A stretch of DNA of 11,427 bases. Origin: an archaeon (GTDB lineage: Archaea > SpSt-1190 > DYHY01). Of this stretch, positions 1 through 11,427 are shown one piece after another; within the stretch, counting starts at the first letter, position 1, and every line of letters begins with the position of its first letter. Both the position numbers and the translations under genes were made by a program. The notes under the pieces were generated by a model. The model saw only the letters and a program-made list of their open reading frames with translations. It was not told the DNA's origin and searched no databases. The stretch spans positions 1-11,427 of the forward strand of contig JBBIPP010000014.1 of assembly GCA_037442745.1 (NCBI GenBank). The letters run 5' to 3'.

Positions 1-215
1 CGGCTCCGCCTCGCGTTCCCGAGAGACTTCACTGATGTTCAGCCTCCTCGTCCGCCAAACTTTACGAAAGTTTGACCAAAAAGGGCGTTTGTCGCAAACG
101 CCTTGGCTTTTACGTGAATGTTTTGTTATAGACAAAAGGCGTCGTTGCAACTCCTTCATTGTAAACTTCGCTCATTCAGAGATTTCGCAAATCCCTATTC
201 TTTCTTCAGCCTCCT
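1..215. repeat. Non-coding cluster of short stem-loops (REP-like palindromic array)
   Basis: CAAACTTT-ACG-AAAGTTTG (56-74), GGCGTTTG-TCG-CAAACGCC (84-102), TTTTGT-TATAG-ACAAAA (121-137), palindrome GTTGCAAC (144-151) and GATTT-CGC-AAATC (181-193). The 11-bp direct repeat TTCAGCCTCCT occurs at 38-48 and 205-215. Confidence 0.6.
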
Positions 216-317
216 AGTTCAAGGCTCGCTCCCAATCTTCGGAACCCGGACTTTGCTTGCCGGCTCGGCCGCTTACTAGGAAACAATTATAGCTCCCCTT
301 TCCTGAAATGTTCCGGT

Positions 318-681
318 ATGGACTATCAGATAATCCCCCTAAACAGCGCGTTCTCAGCTGCCAATTCCGTTCTCTCTTTCGTCTACGCTTTCTCGGCCCT
401 GAAATCCGCGACAATTCTCTCCGACAAAAAGTCTCTCGCCAGGATGAAGGCTGGGTATTTCCTCTCAATAGAAAAAACAGTCATTTCCTGGAAGCTGATT
501 TTTGCGGCAAGCGCGGTTTTCTTCCTCCAATATTTCGCGACAACCCTCTTCCTCCTTGGAGTCTATCAATCCCGACATTCTACGTCCTCCTAGGGATGTA
601 TGTACTGGAGGCAGTCTTCATTCTCCTTCTTGCGGCAGCCTTGTCCCCAACTATCTTATAATAAGGAAATATTCCGGATAG
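318..681 (+). pseudogene. Frameshifted small integral membrane protein (about 3 TM segments), family unknown
   Basis: ATG318 frame gives hydrophobic segments to ...LFLLGVYQS. A -1 shift near 565-575 continues IPTFYVLLGMYVLEAVFILLLAAALS. A probable second -1 shift near 645-650 gives NYLIIRKYSG-TAG(679-681), ending 6 nt before the pirin ATG. Confidence 0.55.
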
Positions 682-687
682 GGAATT

Positions 688-1395
688 ATGGAGAATATCC
701 GGGCGGACTCGCGCTTTTCACGGAAGGCTTCCTCACTTTAGACATACAATCTGTTCTCAATTGGGGAATACGGCTAACAGAAGAACAATTCGTTCGGGAC
801 CTCTAGGTCTTCAACGACGACTTTATCTTCCCGTGAACAGGTTTTCCCTTCCGCCCAAATGCGAATTTCTAGATATTGACAATTGTTGCGGACGGAGCCC
901 TAACGCACTCTGATTCGGAGGGGAATTCGAGACAATATCGGCCGGAAACTCCCAAAGAATGTCCGCCTGAACGGGAATTGTCCACTATGAATTCAACCTC
1001 CCGGAAAAGCCCGTTCGCCTCTTCCAAATATTGTTCTCCCCTCTAAAGAAGAACGTCCAGCAAGCCTACAAGACTGGAAATGGGGTTTTCTGGAAGAATT
1101 CGCTCGCCCCTTGCACGGTTCCGGAAGCGGAACTTTCCTCCGGGAGGAAAAAGGAGAAATCCAAAATCTCCTTGAACGCGAACGCGCGCATTTTCGCCCT
1201 AGAGCTCTCCTCCGGAAAAACCCTTTCCCTCGGAAAAACCCTGACTGGACGGACTTTTGTCCATCTGTTCTCGGGAAAGGCGTCAATAGGAAATCTTGCG
1301 CTTTCCCCCTGAGACCGGGCAAGGATAACTGGGGAGGAGAACATTCCGATTAGTTGGCTCCCTGCGCGCCCAAGGCAATAATAATCAATCTTTGA
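688..1395 (+). pseudogene. Pirin-family (YhhW-like bicupin, quercetin 2,3-dioxygenase-like) pseudogene
   Basis: Reconstructed across frames: MENIRADSRF..L*TYNLFSIGEYG*QKNNSFGT / VFNDDFIFP*TGFPFRPNANF*ILTIVADGALTHSDSEGN / ETISAGNSQRMSA*TGIVHYEFNLPEKPVRLFQILF..ISLNANARIFALEL..FVHLFSGKASIGNLALSP*DRARITGE / KAIIINL*. This matches the recalled pirin motifs LRVxNDD, PGxGFxxHPH, LxHxDSxGN, QxMSAGTGIxHSEFN, QIW and GDxA. Six premature stops (739, 775, 834, 870, 968, 1310) and three frameshifts (~805, ~928, ~1355-1370). About 235 codons, the expected size. Confidence 0.88.
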
Positions 1396-1410
1396 ATTTC
1401 ATCCAAGAAT

Positions 1411-1525
1411 AAAAAATGCTCTGGTGCCAGTGCTATCGCACGGATCTCGGCCGATTCCTCGACGACTGTCGGGATTTCCCCACCGGATTTCGCTCGCATT
1501 ATTGTTCGCTCAATAACCCGAATTT
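1411..1525 (-). repeat. Interrupted degenerate copy of the tRNA-Gly 3' end (T-arm, acceptor strand, CCA, trailer)
   Basis: 1418-1427 equals 1567-1576 (GCTCTGGTGC). 1464-1477 matches 1577-1590 at 13/14. 1515-1525 matches 1592-1602 at 10/11. The blocks are colinear and separated by inserts at 1428-1463 and 1478-1514. Confidence 0.7.
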
Positions 1526-1544
1526 TCCTTTTCCCCGAAAGCTG

Positions 1545-1565
1545 TTTTCTTTCCGAAAGAAAAAA
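1545..1565 (-). terminator. Putative tRNA-Gly terminator (T-tract within an 8-bp hairpin)
   Basis: On the minus strand TTTTTT follows the CCA by 5 nt. TTTTCTTT-CCG-AAAGAAAA inverted repeat at 1545-1563. Confidence 0.45.
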
Positions 1566-1570
1566 GGCTC

Positions 1571-1648
1571 TGGTGCGACGGTCGGGATTTGAACCCGAGT
1601 TTGTGCGTTGGCAACGCACGATCCTAGACCAGGCTAGATGACCGTCGC
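1571..1648 (-). tRNA. tRNA-Gly (anticodon GCC), CCA encoded, no intron
   Basis: Reverse complement folds with acceptor GCGACGG/CCGTCGC, anticodon arm GTGCG-TTGCCAA-CGCAC, T-arm TCGGG-TTCAAAT-CCCGA and 3' ACCA. TATA-like TTAAAAA at 1680-1674. Confidence 0.97.
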
Positions 1649-1811
1649 TTGGTTTTTCCGTAATTTGAGGAGGTTTTTAACTCTATCCTCGGAAAAACTT
1701 TTCAATAAAACCAGGTTGAGCGAAGCGAAATCCGTGGCAATTAATATAGAGCCACGGACTAGATGACCGTCGCTTGGTTTTTCCGTAATTTGAGGAGGTT
1801 TTTAACTCTAT
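1634..1811. repeat. Perfect 53-bp direct repeat (1634-1686 and 1759-1811) containing the tRNA-Gly promoter and its first 15 nt
   Basis: CTAGATGACCGTCGCTTGGTTTTTCCGTAATTTGAGGAGGTTTTTAACTCTAT occurs twice. The 72-bp spacer contains the hairpin TCCGTGGC-N12-GCCACGGA (1731-1758). Confidence 0.95.
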
Positions 1812-1847
1812 TTTTGCAGAGAGACCTTTCTGATAGAACCTACTTGA

Positions 1848-1925
1848 CCGGTGTCGATAGCGACCCGACAAGGGGAAAATCGTGCCGATAAAGCTGGCAC
1901 CAGAGCTCGTTTTCCTTCCAGAAAA
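1848..1925 (+). repeat. Inverted degenerate copy of the tRNA-Gly 3' end, related to 1411-1486
   Basis: CTGGCACCAGAGC (1894-1906) is the exact reverse complement of 1418-1430. Colinear similarity continues through TATCG/CACG, TGTCGGG (CCCGACA at 1864-1870) and CACCGG (1848-1853). 1907-1925 resembles the tRNA trailer. Confidence 0.6.
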
Positions 1926-1932
1926 AAGCCCC

Positions 1933-2289
1933 CTATCCAAAGATAGAAACGCACTTGCCCTGCAAGCAGTCGACTCCTGCCACTGCCCTGCACTTGTAGA
2001 CGCAGTCGCTCTCATAGCCTTCGACAATCCTCTGAATCTCGTTCGCCCTGTCCTTCCGGACAGCAAGACCGCATCCGAACGGGCATTTCGAACCAATTGA
2101 AATGCAGTCGTTTTTGGATGAACAGGCCTTTGCGGAACTTAGCTTTTCAGATATTTCCTCAGGGGTTTTTGGTTCTGGCGCCTTGAAAAAATATCCTGAA
2201 AGAAGAAAAATCCCAAGCAAAACGAGAACTCCGATAGAGACGATTTTCCCGTCAATTTCCATTTTATTTGCCAATTTTGCTTCTGTCAT
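1933..2289 (-). CDS. Small membrane-anchored or secreted Cys-rich hypothetical protein
   Basis: 118 aa with an N-terminal hydrophobic stretch (IVSIGVLVLLGIFLLSGYFF) and then 8 Cys (CSSKNDC..KCPFGC..DCVYKC..DCLQGKC). An alternative start at MEIDGK is possible. Confidence 0.8.
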   Translation of the reverse strand: MTEAKLANKMEIDGKIVSIGVLVLLGIFLLSGYFFKAPEPKTPEEISEKLSSAKACSSKNDCISIGSKCPFGCGLAVRKDRANEIQRIVEGYESDCVYKCRAVAGVDCLQGKCVSIFG

Positions 2290-2627
2290 TTATTAATTCC
2301 TGCCCCTTTTCATCCAAACAAGTTCCTTTTGCTACTCCTCTGCTCTGCCGAAAGGGACAATTCCGTCCAATCCCCTGGAACAATTTTATCCAACAAAAGT
2401 ATTTAACAACACTATTCGAAAAAACGCTCCACCAAAATGGAGACTGCTGAAGGAAAAGAAGTTTTCTCGTCCTTTAGCTTGAGCTCAATTATTTTTCTTG
2501 GTGGCACCCTCGCCCGGATTATTTGAACCGGGTCTATAGGACCGCCTGAATTGTGACAATAAGGACGGACCTCCAAAATTGCAGGATTTTTGTGTTTTTT
2601 CGAAAAACAAAAAAGTGAAAATAAAAA

Positions 2628-2942
2628 ATGAAAACAACAATATATGGAATGATTGATAACCAGAACGGTTTCAGATACTCCACCGACCAATTGCGTGGAC
2701 TAAGAAGATACGGAAGGGCAATAGTTGGAGGTTCCCCCCATTTGTGGAAAAGTTTTGTAGGAAGAGCATATGCGAATAGCTCTGGGGCAAGTGGTTCCGG
2801 GAGTTCCGATTCTGCTCCTGCTCCGGCTACCAAAACAGTTGCCGAAGTTGACCTTGTTTCGGGGAATGTGACTCTGTATGAAGTTGCTGTCGAGCCGGAG
2901 ACGTTAGAAAAAGTTTCTTTAGGGGTTGTTGTGACGCCATGA
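2628..2942 (+). CDS. Hypothetical protein with a central Ser/Gly/Ala-rich linker
   Basis: 104 aa ORF after an A-rich leader. Its stop overlaps the next ATG (ATGA). No family recognised. Confidence 0.55.
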   Translation: MKTTIYGMIDNQNGFRYSTDQLRGLRRYGRAIVGGSPHLWKSFVGRAYANSSGASGSGSSDSAPAPATKTVAEVDLVSGNVTLYEVAVEPETLEKVSLGVVVTP

Positions 2943-3202
2943 GTTCAATCCTCACAGCGCGTTGGCAATTCACCGCATATTCAGAGGAAGAGGCAAGCGC
3001 GTTAGGGGTGACTCCCAGAGATGCTCCTGTAGTTGGCGCATCCGACCTTGCCAATAATTATTCTCCCGCGAAATTCGGAGAGCATGAGGAGGTTGTCGCA
3101 TATGTCCCCTTGGTTGATCTAGCCCCTCCCGGGCCTGCTGTATATGTTCCAGTAAAGGCGGGCGCTCCCGAGAGGTTTTCCTCCGAGCTATTTGGGGTGT
3201 AG
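2939..3202 (+). CDS. Hypothetical protein, translationally coupled to 2628-2942
   Basis: 87 aa, ATGA overlap with the upstream ORF, protein-like composition, ends before the SRP RNA 3' end. No family recognised. Confidence 0.5.
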   Translation: MSSILTARWQFTAYSEEEASALGVTPRDAPVVGASDLANNYSPAKFGEHEEVVAYVPLVDLAPPGPAVYVPVKAGAPERFSSELFGV

Positions 3203-3269
3203 GGAAAAAAAGCCAGTGCATATTTAGCGAAATTGTACTTGATCAGGCTCTGCTGGACTTGAGTTTCAG

Positions 3270-3552
3270 TGCCAGCATCCGGCTTTGATGAAGGGGAACG
3301 TGGGTATACAAAACCCTTACCTCCATTCCGCAACCCCAAGGACGCTCAATGGAGAACCTATGGTTGCTTCCTTCCGGATCTGGCCCATTCAGTTTCCACA
3401 GGCTCCGTTGGGACGAAACTTCGCTGTTGGGGGTGTGTGCAGGGACCCAAATTCCACCCAAACCTAGTACCGGCTTGTTCAGCCTGCCGTAAAGCCCGTT
3501 TGCAGTCCCCCTTTCAGGTTCAGGTCAGGGCTAGCGACCCGCCTAGCTGGCA
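3270..3552 (-). ncRNA. ffs: Archaeal signal recognition particle (7S) RNA
   Basis: The minus strand contains the helix-8 signature GGGCCAGATCCGGAAGGAAGCAACC (~3362-3386). Terminal helix 1 TGCCAGC/GCTGGCA closes about 283 nt. TATA-like TTAAAAA lies 22-28 nt upstream. Confidence 0.9.
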
Positions 3553-3573
3553 AGATGTGAGAATGCCTCAATG

Positions 3574-3593
3574 TTTTTAAGTTTTTTTATAAA
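3574..3593. promoter_or_regulatory. Back-to-back TATA boxes for SRP RNA (-) and dph2 (+)
   Basis: TTAAAAA on minus at 3580-3574. TTTATAAA on plus at 3586-3593, 26 nt before the dph2 ATG, consistent with a leaderless mRNA. Confidence 0.6.
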
Positions 3594-3619
3594 CAGCCGA
3601 TTTCCGGATTATTGCAACA

Positions 3620-4585
3620 ATGCCAAAGGAGGGCCTCGAACTGCTTCCGAAAATCCGCTCAGTTATTGCCAAATCCAGGGCGAAAAGAATTCTAATACAC
3701 CTCCCCGCAGGCCTCTCCCATCTTGCATTCGAGCTAGAGTCGGGGAGGCCCAAAGGAAAATCATTGGTTTTCTGGAGCGAGGGGTGCTACGGCGCCTGCG
3801 ACATTCCTCACATTCAGGCCAAGTTCTTCAAATGCTCTCTGATAGTCTCAGTCGGCCACTCCCCGATGCGTCACTGGAACAAATTGGCTGTCAAGACAAT
3901 TTTCGTCGAATATTTCAAGGGAAAGCCGGAGGATTTGAAGCTACCGGAAATCCCCGGGAAAAGAATTGCCATAGTTTCTTCAAACCAGTTCCTCAATCTC
4001 CTGCCTGAGGCGAAAAAACAGCTGAAAGAAATTGGGAAAATCCCCCTTGTCGGGAAATCAGGGGCGATGTGTTCAGTCGACGGTCAGGTTACCGGATGCG
4101 ACTTTGTATCAGCAGTCCAGTTCAGGAAGAGGGCGGATTCCGTCCTGATTCTTGGGGAAGGAAGCTTCCATTCAGGAGGCTTGGCTGAGGCTGTCGGAAT
4201 CCCTTGCTATCAGGTCGACCCTGCCGAAGGGGTTCTTCGGAAACTAGAGCCAGATTTGAAGAGGAAAAACCGCCTAAACTTTCTCTACTGGAGGGAAGTT
4301 TTCGGAATACTGGTATCAGCAAAGCCGGGGCAAGAGCACTTGTCCCTTGCTTTCTCTGTAAAGGAAAAGCTCGAGAATCTTGGGAAGAAGGCAATAATTC
4401 TTGCTGGGGACACTTTTTCGCCGATGACAATAGGGAATTTTCCGGAAATAGAGGTTCTGATAACCTGCGCCTGCCCAAGAATTGCCGACGATTCCGAGAA
4501 CTATTCCCTTCCAATACTCTCGGCCGAGGAAGTTTTGAAAAGCTTGGCTATATCGGAGAAAAATGACAAGTTCTTCTCTCAGTAA
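3620..4585 (+). CDS. dph2: Diphthamide biosynthesis enzyme Dph2 (non-canonical radical SAM, 2-(3-amino-3-carboxypropyl)histidine synthase)
   Basis: 321 aa. The three Fe-S Cys motifs CYGACD, GQVTGC and ACPRI are present, as are VGHS, FHxxG and GILVSAKPGQ. Confidence 0.93.
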   Translation: MPKEGLELLPKIRSVIAKSRAKRILIHLPAGLSHLAFELESGRPKGKSLVFWSEGCYGACDIPHIQAKFFKCSLIVSVGHSPMRHWNKLAVKTIFVEYFKGKPEDLKLPEIPGKRIAIVSSNQFLNLLPEAKKQLKEIGKIPLVGKSGAMCSVDGQVTGCDFVSAVQFRKRADSVLILGEGSFHSGGLAEAVGIPCYQVDPAEGVLRKLEPDLKRKNRLNFLYWREVFGILVSAKPGQEHLSLAFSVKEKLENLGKKAIILAGDTFSPMTIGNFPEIEVLITCACPRIADDSENYSLPILSAEEVLKSLAISEKNDKFFSQ

Positions 4586-11136: not shown

Positions 11137-11213
11137 GGGTCCGTAGCTCAGACTGGGAGAGCGGCAGACTGAAGATCTGTAGGTCAAGGGTTCAAATCCC
11201 TTCGGACCCACCA
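11137..11213 (+). tRNA. tRNA-Phe (anticodon GAA), CCA encoded, no intron
   Basis: Acceptor GGGTCCG/CGGACCC, D-arm GCTC/GAGC, anticodon arm GCAGA-CTGAAGA-TCTGT, T-arm AAGGG-TTCAAAT-CCCTT and 3' ACCA. Confidence 0.98.
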
Positions 11214-11248
11214 GTTTCGGATAACTTGTTTAACTTCCGAAACTGGTG
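11209..11248. repeat. 13-bp perfect inverted repeat overlapping the tRNA-Phe CCA end
   Basis: CACCAGTTTCGGA (11209-11221) and TCCGAAACTGGTG (11236-11248), with a 14-nt loop. Confidence 0.85.
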
Positions 11249-11324
11249 ACTTCACTAATACTTCATTCAGCCACCCTACCTTGTCCTCAGATTTCGCCTC
11301 CGGGCTCAACCTTCCGCCAAGGCT

Positions 11325-11427
11325 CCAGACATCCCTCCGGTCGGCCTTCTGATCCCCTCCCTTACCCAGACCTCCCTCCGGTCGGCCTTCTGATCCCCTC
11401 CCTTACCCAGACCTCCCTCCGGTCGGC
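11325..11427. repeat. 41-bp tandem repeat, 2.5 copies, truncated by the window end
   Basis: Unit CCAGACCTCCCTCCGGTCGGCCTTCTGATCCCCTCCCTTAC starts at 11325, 11366 and 11407. One mismatch (A11331). No spacers. Confidence 0.95.

Follow-up and report, generated by a model that had tools for sequence, protein, structure and literature searches.

Why would an archaeal glycine tRNA gene be surrounded by interrupted partial copies of its own ends? tRNA genes are classic landing sites of mobile DNA, and archaeal tRNA genes are known for split, permuted and interrupted states. In an 11,427-nt stretch of archaeal DNA (hereafter the window), a first-pass annotation had described a downstream copy of the 3' end of tRNA-Gly split by two inserts (piece i), an upstream copy of its promoter and first 15 nt followed by a hairpin-containing insert (piece ii), and an inverted 3'-end copy (piece iii), and had proposed that a short palindromic element repeatedly invades this tRNA, the gene being restored by duplication. 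The features of the locus are as follows.

318 to 1395, + strand: pirin-like gene, apparently broken (tblastx matches in three frames; 82% to metagenome contig L036 by blastn)
1418 to 1427, - strand: piece (i), 3'-tip copy made of GCACCA and 4 flanking nt (direct and inverted repeats)
1428 to 1462, + strand: piece (i), insert in the acceptor strand, read from the sequence as a full copy of the element here named H1E
1463 to 1477, - strand: piece (i), copy of tRNA nt 57-71 (direct repeat, 93%), in which a single mismatch would disrupt pair 6:67
1463 to 1814, no strand assigned: segment inverted relative to relatives (blastn), holding piece (ii), the tRNA and most of piece (i)
1478 to 1514, + strand: piece (i), T-loop insert at 56/57, an H1E core preceded by a remnant of hairpin H1 (inverted repeat)
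1515 to 1525, - strand: piece (i), copy of tRNA nt ~46-55, the 5' strand of the T stem plus TT (direct repeat, 91%)
1571 to 1648, - strand: intact tRNA-Gly(GCC) gene with encoded CCA (ARAGORN; Rfam RF00005 at 54.4 bits)
1634 to 1686, - strand: repeat copy A, the first 15 nt of the tRNA together with the 38 nt before it (53-nt perfect repeat)
1700 to 1713, - strand: last part of piece (ii), TGG and then a run of Ts, a candidate terminator by sequence reading
1714 to 1757, - strand: H1E copy within piece (ii) (by folding), with hairpin H1 at 1732-1757 and the core at 1714-1733
1759 to 1811, - strand: repeat copy B, with which piece (ii) begins, a promoter-like 38 nt plus tRNA nt 1-15 (1759-1773), 100% identical to copy A
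1848 to 1925, + strand: piece (iii), inverted 3'-end copy (inverted repeats; alignment to piece i)
1933 to 2289, - strand: 118-aa ORF, conserved right-hand neighbor of the locus (ORF list; colinear with L036)

The tRNA gene itself is whole. Its internal 46 nt were found exactly, by pattern search, in two metagenome contigs (L036 and L037), and blastn aligned a copy from a sister species (G001) at 84% over 114 columns, corresponding to tRNA nt 1-69 plus 42 nt upstream. In this genome (G000), each of the Gly isoacceptors GCC, CCC and UCC has an uninterrupted gene, and tRNA-Gly production does not need the pieces. A TTAAAAA TATA-like box can be seen by eye in copy A, ~26-32 nt before the gene. 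The working tRNA-Gly(GCC) gene has no interruption in four out of four genomes seen; its invasion by the element, followed by restoration through duplication, would be conjecture.

The pieces were aligned locally to the tRNA with its flanks, and scores were compared with those of 300 dinucleotide shuffles. Piece (ii) scored 109 (17.5 ± 2.9 in shuffles) and piece (i) 30.0 (16.0 ± 2.4), values that none of the 300 shuffles reached in either case. A repeat search of the window bore out the perfect upstream copy of the promoter and first 15 nt, 1634-1686 being identical to 1759-1811 over 53 nt (100%). Piece (i) is indeed an interrupted 3'-end copy, since its colinear blocks (1397-1427 with 1546-1576 at 77%, 1463-1477 with 1576-1590 at 93%, and 1515-1525 with 1592-1602 at 91%) leave gaps exactly at the claimed inserts. 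Piece (iii) is weak on its own against the tRNA (22.5 versus 15.8 ± 2.6, reached by 8 of 300 shuffles), but the sequence that it was said to share with piece (i) is real (score of 34 versus 15.8 ± 2.8, with a shuffle maximum of 28). It contains a degenerate H1E at ~1866-1896 and a 3' tip, GCACCAGAGC, at 1897-1906; the inverted arms 1411-1438 and 1886-1913 are 79% identical, and its orientation and flank are those of the downstream copy in a relative, with which it is colinear (L036 from position 1661). Together, the pieces span only tRNA nt 1-15 and ~46-76, nt 22-43 with the anticodon being absent.

Every insert in these tRNA-end copies is the same composite element, H1E, of ~36-45 nt: a CCGTG..CACGG hairpin (H1), then a core consisting of GGAYYTCG, a small variable hairpin and CTCRR. 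H1E-like sequences lie at 1428-1462 (+), 1478-1514 (+) and 1714-1757 (-), with a degenerate one within 1866-1896, in two orientations and at three insertion points in the tRNA-end copies (15/16, 56/57 and ~71/72). The short palindromic element proposed earlier is thus recognizable at the pieces, the working gene itself being uninterrupted. In piece (ii), H1 at 1732-1757 is CCGTGGC, a 12-nt loop and GCCACGG, and the core, at 1714-1733, has the - strand sequence GGATTTCG-CTTCG-CTCAACC. The T-loop insert of piece (i) has a core at 1485-1513 (+) that reads GGATTTCG...CTCAA, and an inverted-repeat search matched 1484-1494 with 1724-1734 at 100%. The insert at 1428-1462 (+), a hairpin followed by GGATCTCG...CTCGA, resembles both the insert of piece (iii) and that of a separate downstream copy in L036/L037. 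The 22-nt core of piece (ii) recurs identically upstream of tRNA-Gly(UCC) on contig C9. After the core of piece (ii) comes CCTGGT, which had been taken for the next nucleotides of the D-loop. This match lends no support: its two Cs are found after every core (CTCAACC), and relatives read CCCGGT or CCTAGT. H1E is not present in the introns of this genome's tRNA genes, and among Rfam covariance models only tRNA reaches its gathering score.

Comparison of four related sequences revealed the same modules, in the same order, in the sister species and in the two metagenome contigs. The T-loop insert of piece (i) occupies the same position in L036/L037, with a 30-nt variant in the sister genome, and a hot-spring metagenome contig spans 1463-1512 with five differences. 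In three species, piece (ii) retains its hairpin stem, core, promoter-like box and T run, while loop and spacers drift. The H1 loop differs in sequence and length (12, 10 and 6 nt in this genome, L036/L037 and the sister genome, respectively); the stem persists through changes of its top pairs (GC, C, CC or TC), whose partners match. The small hairpin in the core is usually still a hairpin, though neither its sequence nor its length is constant. A TATA-like box lies 24-34 nt upstream of piece (ii) in all of these sequences, even in the sister species where the promoter of piece (ii) is not a copy of the tRNA promoter, and the T run after the core is likewise common to them. A pattern for the piece (ii) junction had no match in a metagenome scan and matched the sister genome only among genome contigs; a class-wide search allowing two mismatches gave, beyond these two genomes, one match in a third (G003), in coding sequence, and 17 matches in three others (G006, G008 and G015). 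The module arrangement, common to three species, is old and not the product of repeated recent hits at this tRNA.

What is particular to this genome is an inversion. Aligned by blastn, positions 87-1169 of L036 correspond to 318-1395 of the window (+), 1176-1535 to 1814-1463 in inverted orientation (87%), and 1661-2490 to 1870-2688 (+). Two inverted H1E-bearing 3'-tip copies bound the inverted segment, as would be the case if such modules had recombined with each other or one had inserted replicatively. In relatives, the pirin gene lies upstream of piece (ii), on the tRNA strand; in the sister genome, where the order is pirin, piece (ii), tRNA, its ORF is intact (238 aa, Pfam Pirin 3.2e-27). 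No Pfam family matched the 118-aa ORF on the right.

tRNA-Gly(GCC) is not alone in this genome. The first-pass annotation had missed this, as well as the inversion and the hairpins that downstream modules at other tRNA genes tend to form. A search of the flanks of all tRNA genes, suggested by the first-pass annotation, revealed the H1E family beside many others in this genome and in two related ones. A copy of the gene's own 3' end (at least 10 nt of the last 16) occurs within 300 nt downstream of 17 of the 46 tRNA genes, with 0.23 expected, and a copy of its own 5' end (first 21 nt) upstream of seven, with 0.12 expected; the expectations were obtained by pairing tRNAs with the wrong flanks (1982 mismatched pairs). 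None of the 46 has its 3' end copied upstream or its 5' end copied downstream. Most 3' copies begin 13-15 or 18-21 nt before the gene end, after a CTCRR-type motif; genome-wide, their starts fall 13-21 nt before the gene end and they extend 0-12 nt past it. At 28 loci, the interval between gene and copy is 32-136 nt, with no element genes inside, and a T-rich stretch often separates the two. Perfect tandem arrays are found at Lys, Ile and Arg tRNA genes, with at least four units at an Arg gene of another genus, and the modules at the same tRNA differ between species; both observations point to rapid turnover. Few genomes of this lineage have been sequenced, and in it own-end copies fused to one conserved hairpin element stand beside many tRNA genes, form arrays and turn over between species; at the locus studied here, the tRNA-Gly gene has been flipped. 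The tandem units are not CRISPR arrays, since the real CRISPR has a 36-nt type V-A repeat on other contigs, and a 67-nt array on contig C13 is a duplicated gene end plus hairpin. Full-text literature searches found no description of tRNA-end/hairpin modules of this sort.

As seen by eye, the right arm of downstream modules copies the tRNA end, and the left arm reads as the reverse complement of that copy. When the first downstream modules were folded with RNAfold, at least 7 nt of the 3' copy paired with the upstream arm in 19 out of 28, and at least 6 nt in 22 out of 28. Own arms pair better than mismatched ones (mean of -13.3 versus -10.2 kcal/mol; 28 own versus 710 crossed pairs; Mann-Whitney p = 7.5e-5), in a test that rests on modules defined by their 3' copies. 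A relaxed core pattern, whose 103 matches included many chance ones in genes, diluted this test and was set aside.

The core motif is enriched only in three related genomes of one family. GATTTCG-N6-26-CTCAACC has 8, 16 and 9 matches in G000, G001 and G003, against 0-3 per genome in 197 other archaea, and reversed-pattern controls gave none in the three. The core is unchanged across genera, and nearly all cores lie on the same strand as the tRNA. Cores are also found away from tRNA genes, and at the 3' end of a protein gene. In the sister genome, two loci with no tRNA gene nearby (L041 and L048) carry a core-bearing insert between direct repeats of local sequence, and another non-tRNA site (L045) has a complex insertion of ~330 nt relative to G000. 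In viral contigs, there were two exact core matches, which we read as chance since both lie inside a coding region, with no tRNA nearby.

What might produce such a pattern? The reading that we prefer, tentatively and with slightly less than even confidence, is a lineage-specific short repeat whose spread, at the DNA level, goes together with the duplication of tRNA ends. What settles beside a tRNA gene would be an element or a recombination site, accompanied by a duplicate of the gene's 5' or 3' end, and this duplicate would keep the working gene whole. The modules would later undergo tandem amplification, recombination and decay. At tRNA-Gly, the arrangement of piece (ii), tRNA, piece (i) and a further 3' copy would be older than the split of at least three species, and the 352-nt cassette at 1463-1814 would have been inverted later, in this genome, between the two inverted H1E-bearing 3'-tip copies. 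We infer the mobility of H1E, the order of events and the mechanism of its spread. If the modules are DNA-level parasites, they offer a live example of how tRNA fragments, insertions at intron-like positions and rearrangements arise.

The machinery for such a spread was sought in this genome, which is 94.5% complete. It has no match to Y1 transposase (PF01797) or TnpB-type proteins (PF07282) and no reverse transcriptase over the cut-off, and its only Cas1 adjoins Cas12a, Cas4 and CRISPR arrays. No integrase lies in the window, as had been noted; the genome has one, of the tyrosine type, directly after tRNA-Cys on another contig, plus one fragment. Comparison with the sister genome found no clean empty/filled site pair at a tRNA gene, the tRNA flanks being too diverged. 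Simple insertion is no explanation for the arm pairing, in which the left arm is the reverse complement of a tRNA-end copy. Fold-back/template-switch, Helitron/IS91-like ends, integron attC and tRNA reverse transcription each fail, on paper, at least one feature. The features at issue are the conserved center with variable arms, the duplications, and the copies that include unprocessed flank.

Known families of short repeats offer partial parallels. REP/BIME, MITEs and IS200/IS605 palindrome-associated elements are short hairpin repeats without genes, mostly extragenic after gene ends and sometimes clustered, and they have the same arms in every copy. Here, in contrast, the arms copy the neighboring tRNA and only the center is constant; moreover, IS200/IS605-type miniature elements need a Y1 transposase (often with TnpB), neither of which is matched in this genome. 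Casposon/Cas1 insertion involves a Cas1 outside CRISPR-Cas and target duplications of 14-15 bp at the tRNA 3' end; here, the duplications often start 13-15 nt before the gene end, their lengths vary, and the only Cas1 is the CRISPR-associated one.

Alternatively, the modules could be genes or cis-elements for small structured RNAs, a possibility that we consider somewhat less likely. Piece (ii) would then specify a 65-90-nt RNA made of the first 15 nt of the tRNA, H1 and the core. The downstream modules would form hairpins that end in NCCA, with a stem mimicking the acceptor/T stem and the core as loop; they could serve in tRNA 3' processing or termination, as T-loop guides, or as acceptor-arm mimics or decoys. 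That piece (ii) keeps its stem, core, box and T run while its loop drifts is less what debris would show than what selection on a small transcription unit would. Box and T run persist beside an unrelated promoter sequence in the sister species, the H1 top pairs change together with their partners, and the variable hairpin of the core usually survives. The strand bias of the cores, the pairing of the 3' copy with the upstream arm and the advantage of own over mismatched arms fit as well, although an inverted DNA duplication equally predicts hairpin arms. There is also a precedent: in Methanopyrus kandleri, according to the part of the paper that treats it (PMC5217627), a lineage-specific palindrome lies ~10 bp downstream of about half of the tRNA genes and is suggested by the authors to be a 3'-maturation signal. 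It is alike in being a lineage-specific hairpin just after many tRNA genes, but that palindrome is fixed, is not fused to tRNA-end copies and, in that part of the paper, is not reported in arrays, whereas the modules here are fused and arrayed. Modules present at some tRNA genes only (17 of 46 for 3' copies of at least 10 nt, seven of 46 for 5' copies) and differing between species do not suit a small-RNA function well, nor does the T-rich stretch often found between tRNA and module; the perfect tandem arrays suggest turnover rather than fixed function. Clear Rfam matches within 1-3700, at E values up to 5, are to tRNA and SRP RNA only.

A more specific form, which we regard as doubtful, is a system of tRNA-matched small RNAs acting as guides, mimics or decoys of the cognate tRNA, with a hairpin stem copying the acceptor/T stem and a loop complementing the T-loop flanks. 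The core can be read as the complement of these flanks (GGTT and AAATCC), the small hairpin lying opposite C56. Such RNAs might act in T-loop modification or processing, or might protect the tRNA or its gene from tRNA-targeting enzymes or integrating elements, and upstream 5' pieces such as piece (ii) would be their partners. The resemblance to guide RNAs is limited to the complementarity of the core on both sides of the T-loop: inspection of the piece and modules by eye revealed no C/D boxes and no K-turn, and the upper hairpin has 2-6 pairs. If RNAs they are, they would form a new class of tRNA-matched small RNA.

We give similarly little weight to the possibility that the pieces are att remnants of repeated classical integration by integrase-type viruses or plasmids, the elements having been deleted later and the core being what would be the conserved arm of their attP. 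At tRNA integration sites, the identity block usually starts at a set position within the tRNA and continues through the gene end; the 3' copies here do likewise, starting inside the T-loop or just past it and reaching 0-12 nt beyond the gene end. The same-strand 3' copies downstream or 5' copies upstream of an intact gene are also shared with att duplicates of archaeal and bacterial viruses and plasmids, in which identity extends from the crossover point to the gene end. Such duplicates bound an integrase-bearing element, whereas the direct repeats here bound 72 nt and ~45 nt with no ORF, and the intervals at the 28 loci hold no element genes. Unlike att duplicates, the copies contain, or are joined to, a conserved 36-45-nt hairpin element and occur in perfect tandem arrays; at other tRNA genes, the sequence upstream of a 3' copy tends to pair with it, forming a hairpin around the element with arms that look palindromic around the core by eye. 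The tyrosine integrase does lie immediately behind tRNA-Cys, a gene preceded by a 20-nt copy of its 5' end. A search of the whole genome for a further copy, 11 nt or longer, of the 3' end of this tRNA found none. This integrase would be the one to account for 17 of 46 affected tRNA genes in a 1.1-Mb genome; viral contigs hold no relative of it, and the core also occurs away from tRNA genes. Published cases give the idea some backing. Partial tRNA fragments in Aeropyrum have been ascribed to integrations, in the portion of the paper that covers them (PMC3218864). In a Caldiarchaeum population, as described in the relevant part of Sugahara et al. 2012 (PMC3293823), a 5' tRNA fragment lies 1.8 kb off across a recombinase-bearing insertion sequence, the full gene has introns, and a model attributes both fragments and new introns to integration and recombination of that element. 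A 5' fragment upstream of a full copy, with intervening sequence gained along with a mobile element, is the likeness to our locus; unlike in that account (PMC3293823), the spacing here is 125 nt and contains no gene, the full tRNA gene has no interruption, and the genome has such copies at many of its tRNA genes.

A split, permuted or multi-intron tRNA, with the pieces as its exons and splicing endonuclease and ligase to join them, is highly improbable, and this reading, offered earlier as an alternative, is largely refuted. Non-canonical introns of archaeal tRNAs occur in D-loop, T-loop and acceptor regions, as do the inserts here, and the insert of piece (ii) complements the T-loop insert of piece (i) (11 nt perfect, more with a bulge), which resembles the leader/trailer pairing of split tRNAs; this complementarity is much weaker in the sister species. 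All three Gly isoacceptor genes are uninterrupted, the anticodon region lies in no piece, and piece (i) has the mismatch at pair 6:67. A scan for bulge-helix-bulge motifs with a home-made script, which recovers four of five ARAGORN introns with flanking helices of 5-12 pairs, found nothing at 15/16 and 71/72 and only a background-like 2+2-pair match near 56/57. Split and tri-split tRNAs of Nanoarchaeum, Caldivirga and Desulfurococcales are alike in their separate 5' and 3' pieces, promoter-like sequences and complementary tails, and unlike in that here a complete gene stands beside the pieces, the anticodon part is missing and there is no splicing motif (as far as the relevant part of PMC3218864 describes them).

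Finally, an artefact of metagenome assembly deserves hardly any credence: repeats of this kind do break assemblies, contigs of the sister genome end inside tRNA-Gly and scaffold gaps follow several arrays, but the same modules occur in two metagenome contigs and a second genome, and independent k-mer contigs (Logan) from two samples of one study, one of them possibly the source, agree on the joins of the locus and reproduce every one within 1200-2400. Because such pieces mimic tRNA fragments and break assemblies, annotators should recognize the pattern. In both samples, the 53-mer is a node of its own in the graph, with roughly threefold depth, and the 132-nt piece between its two copies is bridged in the sample contigs. 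A third study has short contig pieces matching piece (i), the tRNA and the 53-nt repeat.

Every block that the first-pass annotation had described around tRNA-Gly(GCC) was recovered by a repeat finder in G000, an archaeal metagenome-assembled genome (1.14 Mb, 20 contigs; the window is bases 1-11,427 of contig C14) whose phylum is represented by only 17 species genomes in the searched collection. A perfect 53-nt repeat (1634-1686 and 1759-1811) holds tRNA nt 1-15 plus 38 nt upstream; its first unit is that of the tRNA gene itself, and its second belongs to the upstream copy of the 5' end and promoter (ii). The downstream copy of the 3' end (i) consists of three colinear blocks with identities of 77%, 93% and 91% and two inserts between them, and in the inverted arms 1411-1438 pairs with 1886-1913, the latter in the inverted 3'-end copy (iii). 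In the shuffled control proposed in that annotation, none of 300 dinucleotide shuffles reached the score of (i) or of (ii) aligned to the tRNA and its flanks; the score of (iii) was matched in 8 of 300. Aligned to each other, (i) and (iii) scored 34, whereas such shuffles averaged 15.8 and peaked at 28.

The inserts of (i), (ii) and (iii) are a single element, the composite repeat H1E, in which a hairpin, H1 (CCGTG..CACGG), is followed by a core (GGAYYTCG, a small hairpin, CTCRR). The tRNA gene and the H1E copies are:

1428-1462, plus strand: H1E
1478-1514, plus strand: H1E
1571-1648, minus strand: tRNA-Gly(GCC) with encoded CCA
1714-1757, minus strand: H1E
about 1866-1896: H1E, degenerate

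Read on the tRNA strand, (ii) has four parts:

Part 1: tRNA nt 1-15, then T
Part 2: H1 hairpin, CCGTGGC, 12-nt loop, GCCACGG
Part 3: core, GGATTTCG-CTTCG-CTCAACC
Part 4: TGG, then a T run

In the T-loop of (i), the insert is the core of (ii) in reversed orientation with H1 truncated; the acceptor strand of (i), like (iii), carries a diverged full copy of H1 plus core. The CCTGGT once taken for a further D-loop match in (ii) loses weight because CC invariably trails the core and relatives read CCCGGT or CCTAGT.

In the sister species genome G001, (ii) is present upstream of the same tRNA-Gly; its upstream sequence differs, yet a T/A-rich box lies at promoter distance, its H1 has a stem of 6 pairs and a 6-nt loop, and its core holds an additional 29-nt hairpin. 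Downstream, in a locus that is split where contigs end inside tRNA-Gly, tandem 111-nt units each carry a T-loop-interrupted 3' copy and are followed by two more 3' copies. Two near-identical metagenome contigs of relatives, L036 and L037, each span the entire locus: the pirin gene comes first, then (ii), the tRNA and (i), and after a spacer of about 100 nt a separate 3'-tip copy and then the 118-aa ORF; their (i) has the T-loop insert only, and their separate 3'-tip copy is interrupted by a reverse H1E. One contig fragment from hot-spring data includes the insert in the T-loop of (i), at 5 differences, and runs on into an acceptor end without interruption. Since such modules, i.e., tRNA-end copies fused to a core- or H1-type element, are present in relatives, the arrangement is older than these species. 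Comparison of G000 with L036/L037 shows a conserved H1 stem and 18-nt core and a diverged H1 loop and spacers. In each species, the copied 15 nt match its own tRNA with 0-1 mismatch.

Comparison by blastn showed that L036 87-1169 and 1661-2490 correspond to window 318-1395 and 1870-2688 in forward orientation, and L036 1176-1535 to window 1814-1463, inverted, at 87% identity. The order in G001 agrees with L036, and therefore a 352-nt cassette at 1463-1814, containing the tRNA together with (ii) and most of (i), has flipped in G000. Its boundaries, a 3'-tip copy plus H1E on the left (1418-1462) and (iii) on the right, are mutually inverted copies, and (iii) is oriented and flanked like the separate 3'-tip copy in the relatives. 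This geometry is consistent with recombination between inverted modules or with intramolecular replicative insertion, a choice that would be a matter of inference. The neighboring pirin-like gene (318-1395, plus strand) appears broken, by frameshifts or assembly indels, because it matches an intact 238-aa G001 ORF in three different frames.

We then counted own-end copies at 46 tRNA genes of G000 (one long ARAGORN call excluded). At least 10 nt of a gene's own last 16 nt recur within 300 nt downstream at 17 of 46 (0.23 expected, from 1982 mismatched pairs), and the own first 21 nt are copied upstream at 7 (0.12 expected). The opposite placements (3' end upstream, 5' end downstream) occur at 0 of 46, and reverse-complement copies number at most 1. 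Most 3' copies start at a point 13-15 or 18-21 nt short of the gene end, and a CTCAA/CTCGG/CTCAG-type motif precedes most of them. After the 5' copies comes either H1 or another GC-rich type of hairpin. Tandem arrays follow these tRNA genes:

Lys-CTT: perfect array, 59-nt units
Ile-GAT: perfect array, 47 nt
Arg-TCT: perfect array, 83 nt
tRNA-Phe(GAA), the window's own, 11137-11213, plus strand: tandem array

Within 11137-11427, tRNA-Phe is followed by three core-like motifs. The first is at 11259-11272, the second is an exact core (11290-11311), and the third is a tandem repeat of 41 nt (11325-11427; 2.5 copies, 98%) whose unit ends are a near-copy of the tRNA-Phe 3' end and which extends into a 100-N scaffold gap.

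The core pattern GATTTCG-N6-26-CTCAACC occurs 8 times in G000, 16 in G001 and 9 in G003, a related genome of a different genus that is G+C richer by eye; reversed-pattern controls gave 0 in all three, and 197 other archaeal genomes have 0-3 matches each. G001 and G003 show the same architecture after Glu, Arg, Leu, Met, Pro and Ile genes, with one array of at least 4 units. Elsewhere, a module downstream of a tRNA gene has as its right arm an exact tRNA copy from about nt 62 to the end; the left arm is by eye its imperfect reverse complement, discriminator included, and between them lies the core, containing a small GC hairpin variable in length and sequence. Of 28 first modules, 19 had at least 7 nt of the 3' copy paired to the upstream arm by RNAfold. 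Pairing was stronger between own arms (-13.3 kcal/mol) than between mismatched arms (-10.2 kcal/mol; p = 7.5e-5). One way to describe the core is as GGTTCAAATCC reverse-complemented, with the base opposite C56 exchanged for CG-hairpin-CTC, a description rather than an origin.

The best reading, which we hold tentatively, is that the modules are continually regenerated at the DNA level, because they turn over rapidly while the core is unchanged across genera, because at two loci away from tRNA genes a core-bearing insert lies between local direct repeats, and because mutually inverted module copies bound the inversion. Some process would thus keep remaking them in DNA. No Y1 transposase, TnpB-type domain or reverse transcriptase scored above cut-off in G000, nothing relevant was found in viral contigs, and Cas1 is part of a type V-A CRISPR-Cas locus. 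That locus (C3 96817-102691 and the end of C9) encodes a 1239-aa Cas12a-like ORF, Cas4 and Cas1, with arrays whose 36-nt repeat ends in AATTTCTACTATTGTAGAT. The main rival, possible but less probable, is that the modules, (ii) especially, may be small-RNA genes or cis-acting RNA elements, as suggested by a promoter-like box, stem, core and T run kept in three species. Classical att scars are improbable. G000 has one integrase, after tRNA-Cys: the gene of this 426-aa tyrosine integrase (C12 40791-42216) starts 72 nt past tRNA-Cys, which has a 20-nt copy of its own 5' end 106 nt upstream; a second copy of the tRNA-Cys 3' end was not found.

A split or intron-bearing tRNA-Gly is very unlikely and was rejected: all three Gly isoacceptors are uninterrupted genes, nt 22-43 are absent from every piece, and (i) is mismatched at pair 6:67. 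A self-written bulge-helix-bulge scan, which found 5-12 pairs in the flanking helices of the 4 introns it recovered out of 5 predicted by ARAGORN, gave nothing or a 2+2-pair background match at the insert junctions. Upstream of tRNA-Gln(TTG) in G000, contig C15 16425-16560 holds a copy of tRNA nt 1-36, a 34-nt core-bearing insert and nt 37-44; the insert is at the anticodon loop, which puts the element where a canonical intron would lie, in a truncated copy of the gene. An assembly artefact is scarcely credible, as all joins recur in k-mer contigs from two samples of one study (one sample may be the source), where the 53-mer forms its own node at about threefold depth.

A full-text literature search found no description of such modules. 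The nearest items are a Caldiarchaeum model in which a mobile element disrupts a tRNA gene (PMC3293823), split tRNAs and partial tRNA fragments attributed to integrations (PMC3218864), and a palindrome after about half of the tRNA genes of Methanopyrus kandleri (PMC5217627).

Another motif, CCGTTGACGGG (in one case CCGTTCACGGG), occurs 5 times in G000, always on the same strand as a tRNA gene that lies no more than 153 nt away:

C7 17141
C7 17263
C8 21541
C9 7068
C12 40720

A GTCCGTT..AACGGAC hairpin and a TTTGATNAAACTTTCNTAAAGTTT block often come after this motif, and one such block stands immediately before a tRNA gene (Ala-GGC). The window also encodes a full-length archaeal SRP RNA (3269-3553, minus strand; model positions 1-317), which is divergent since its 60.7 bits fall below the gathering score of 96.5. 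Finally, C13 31829-32008 is a perfect 67-nt tandem repeat (2.7 copies) whose unit joins an H1-type hairpin to the final 30 nt of a protein gene that by eye has a thioredoxin-reductase-like C-terminus, and therefore duplication of a gene end with a hairpin is not confined to tRNA genes.
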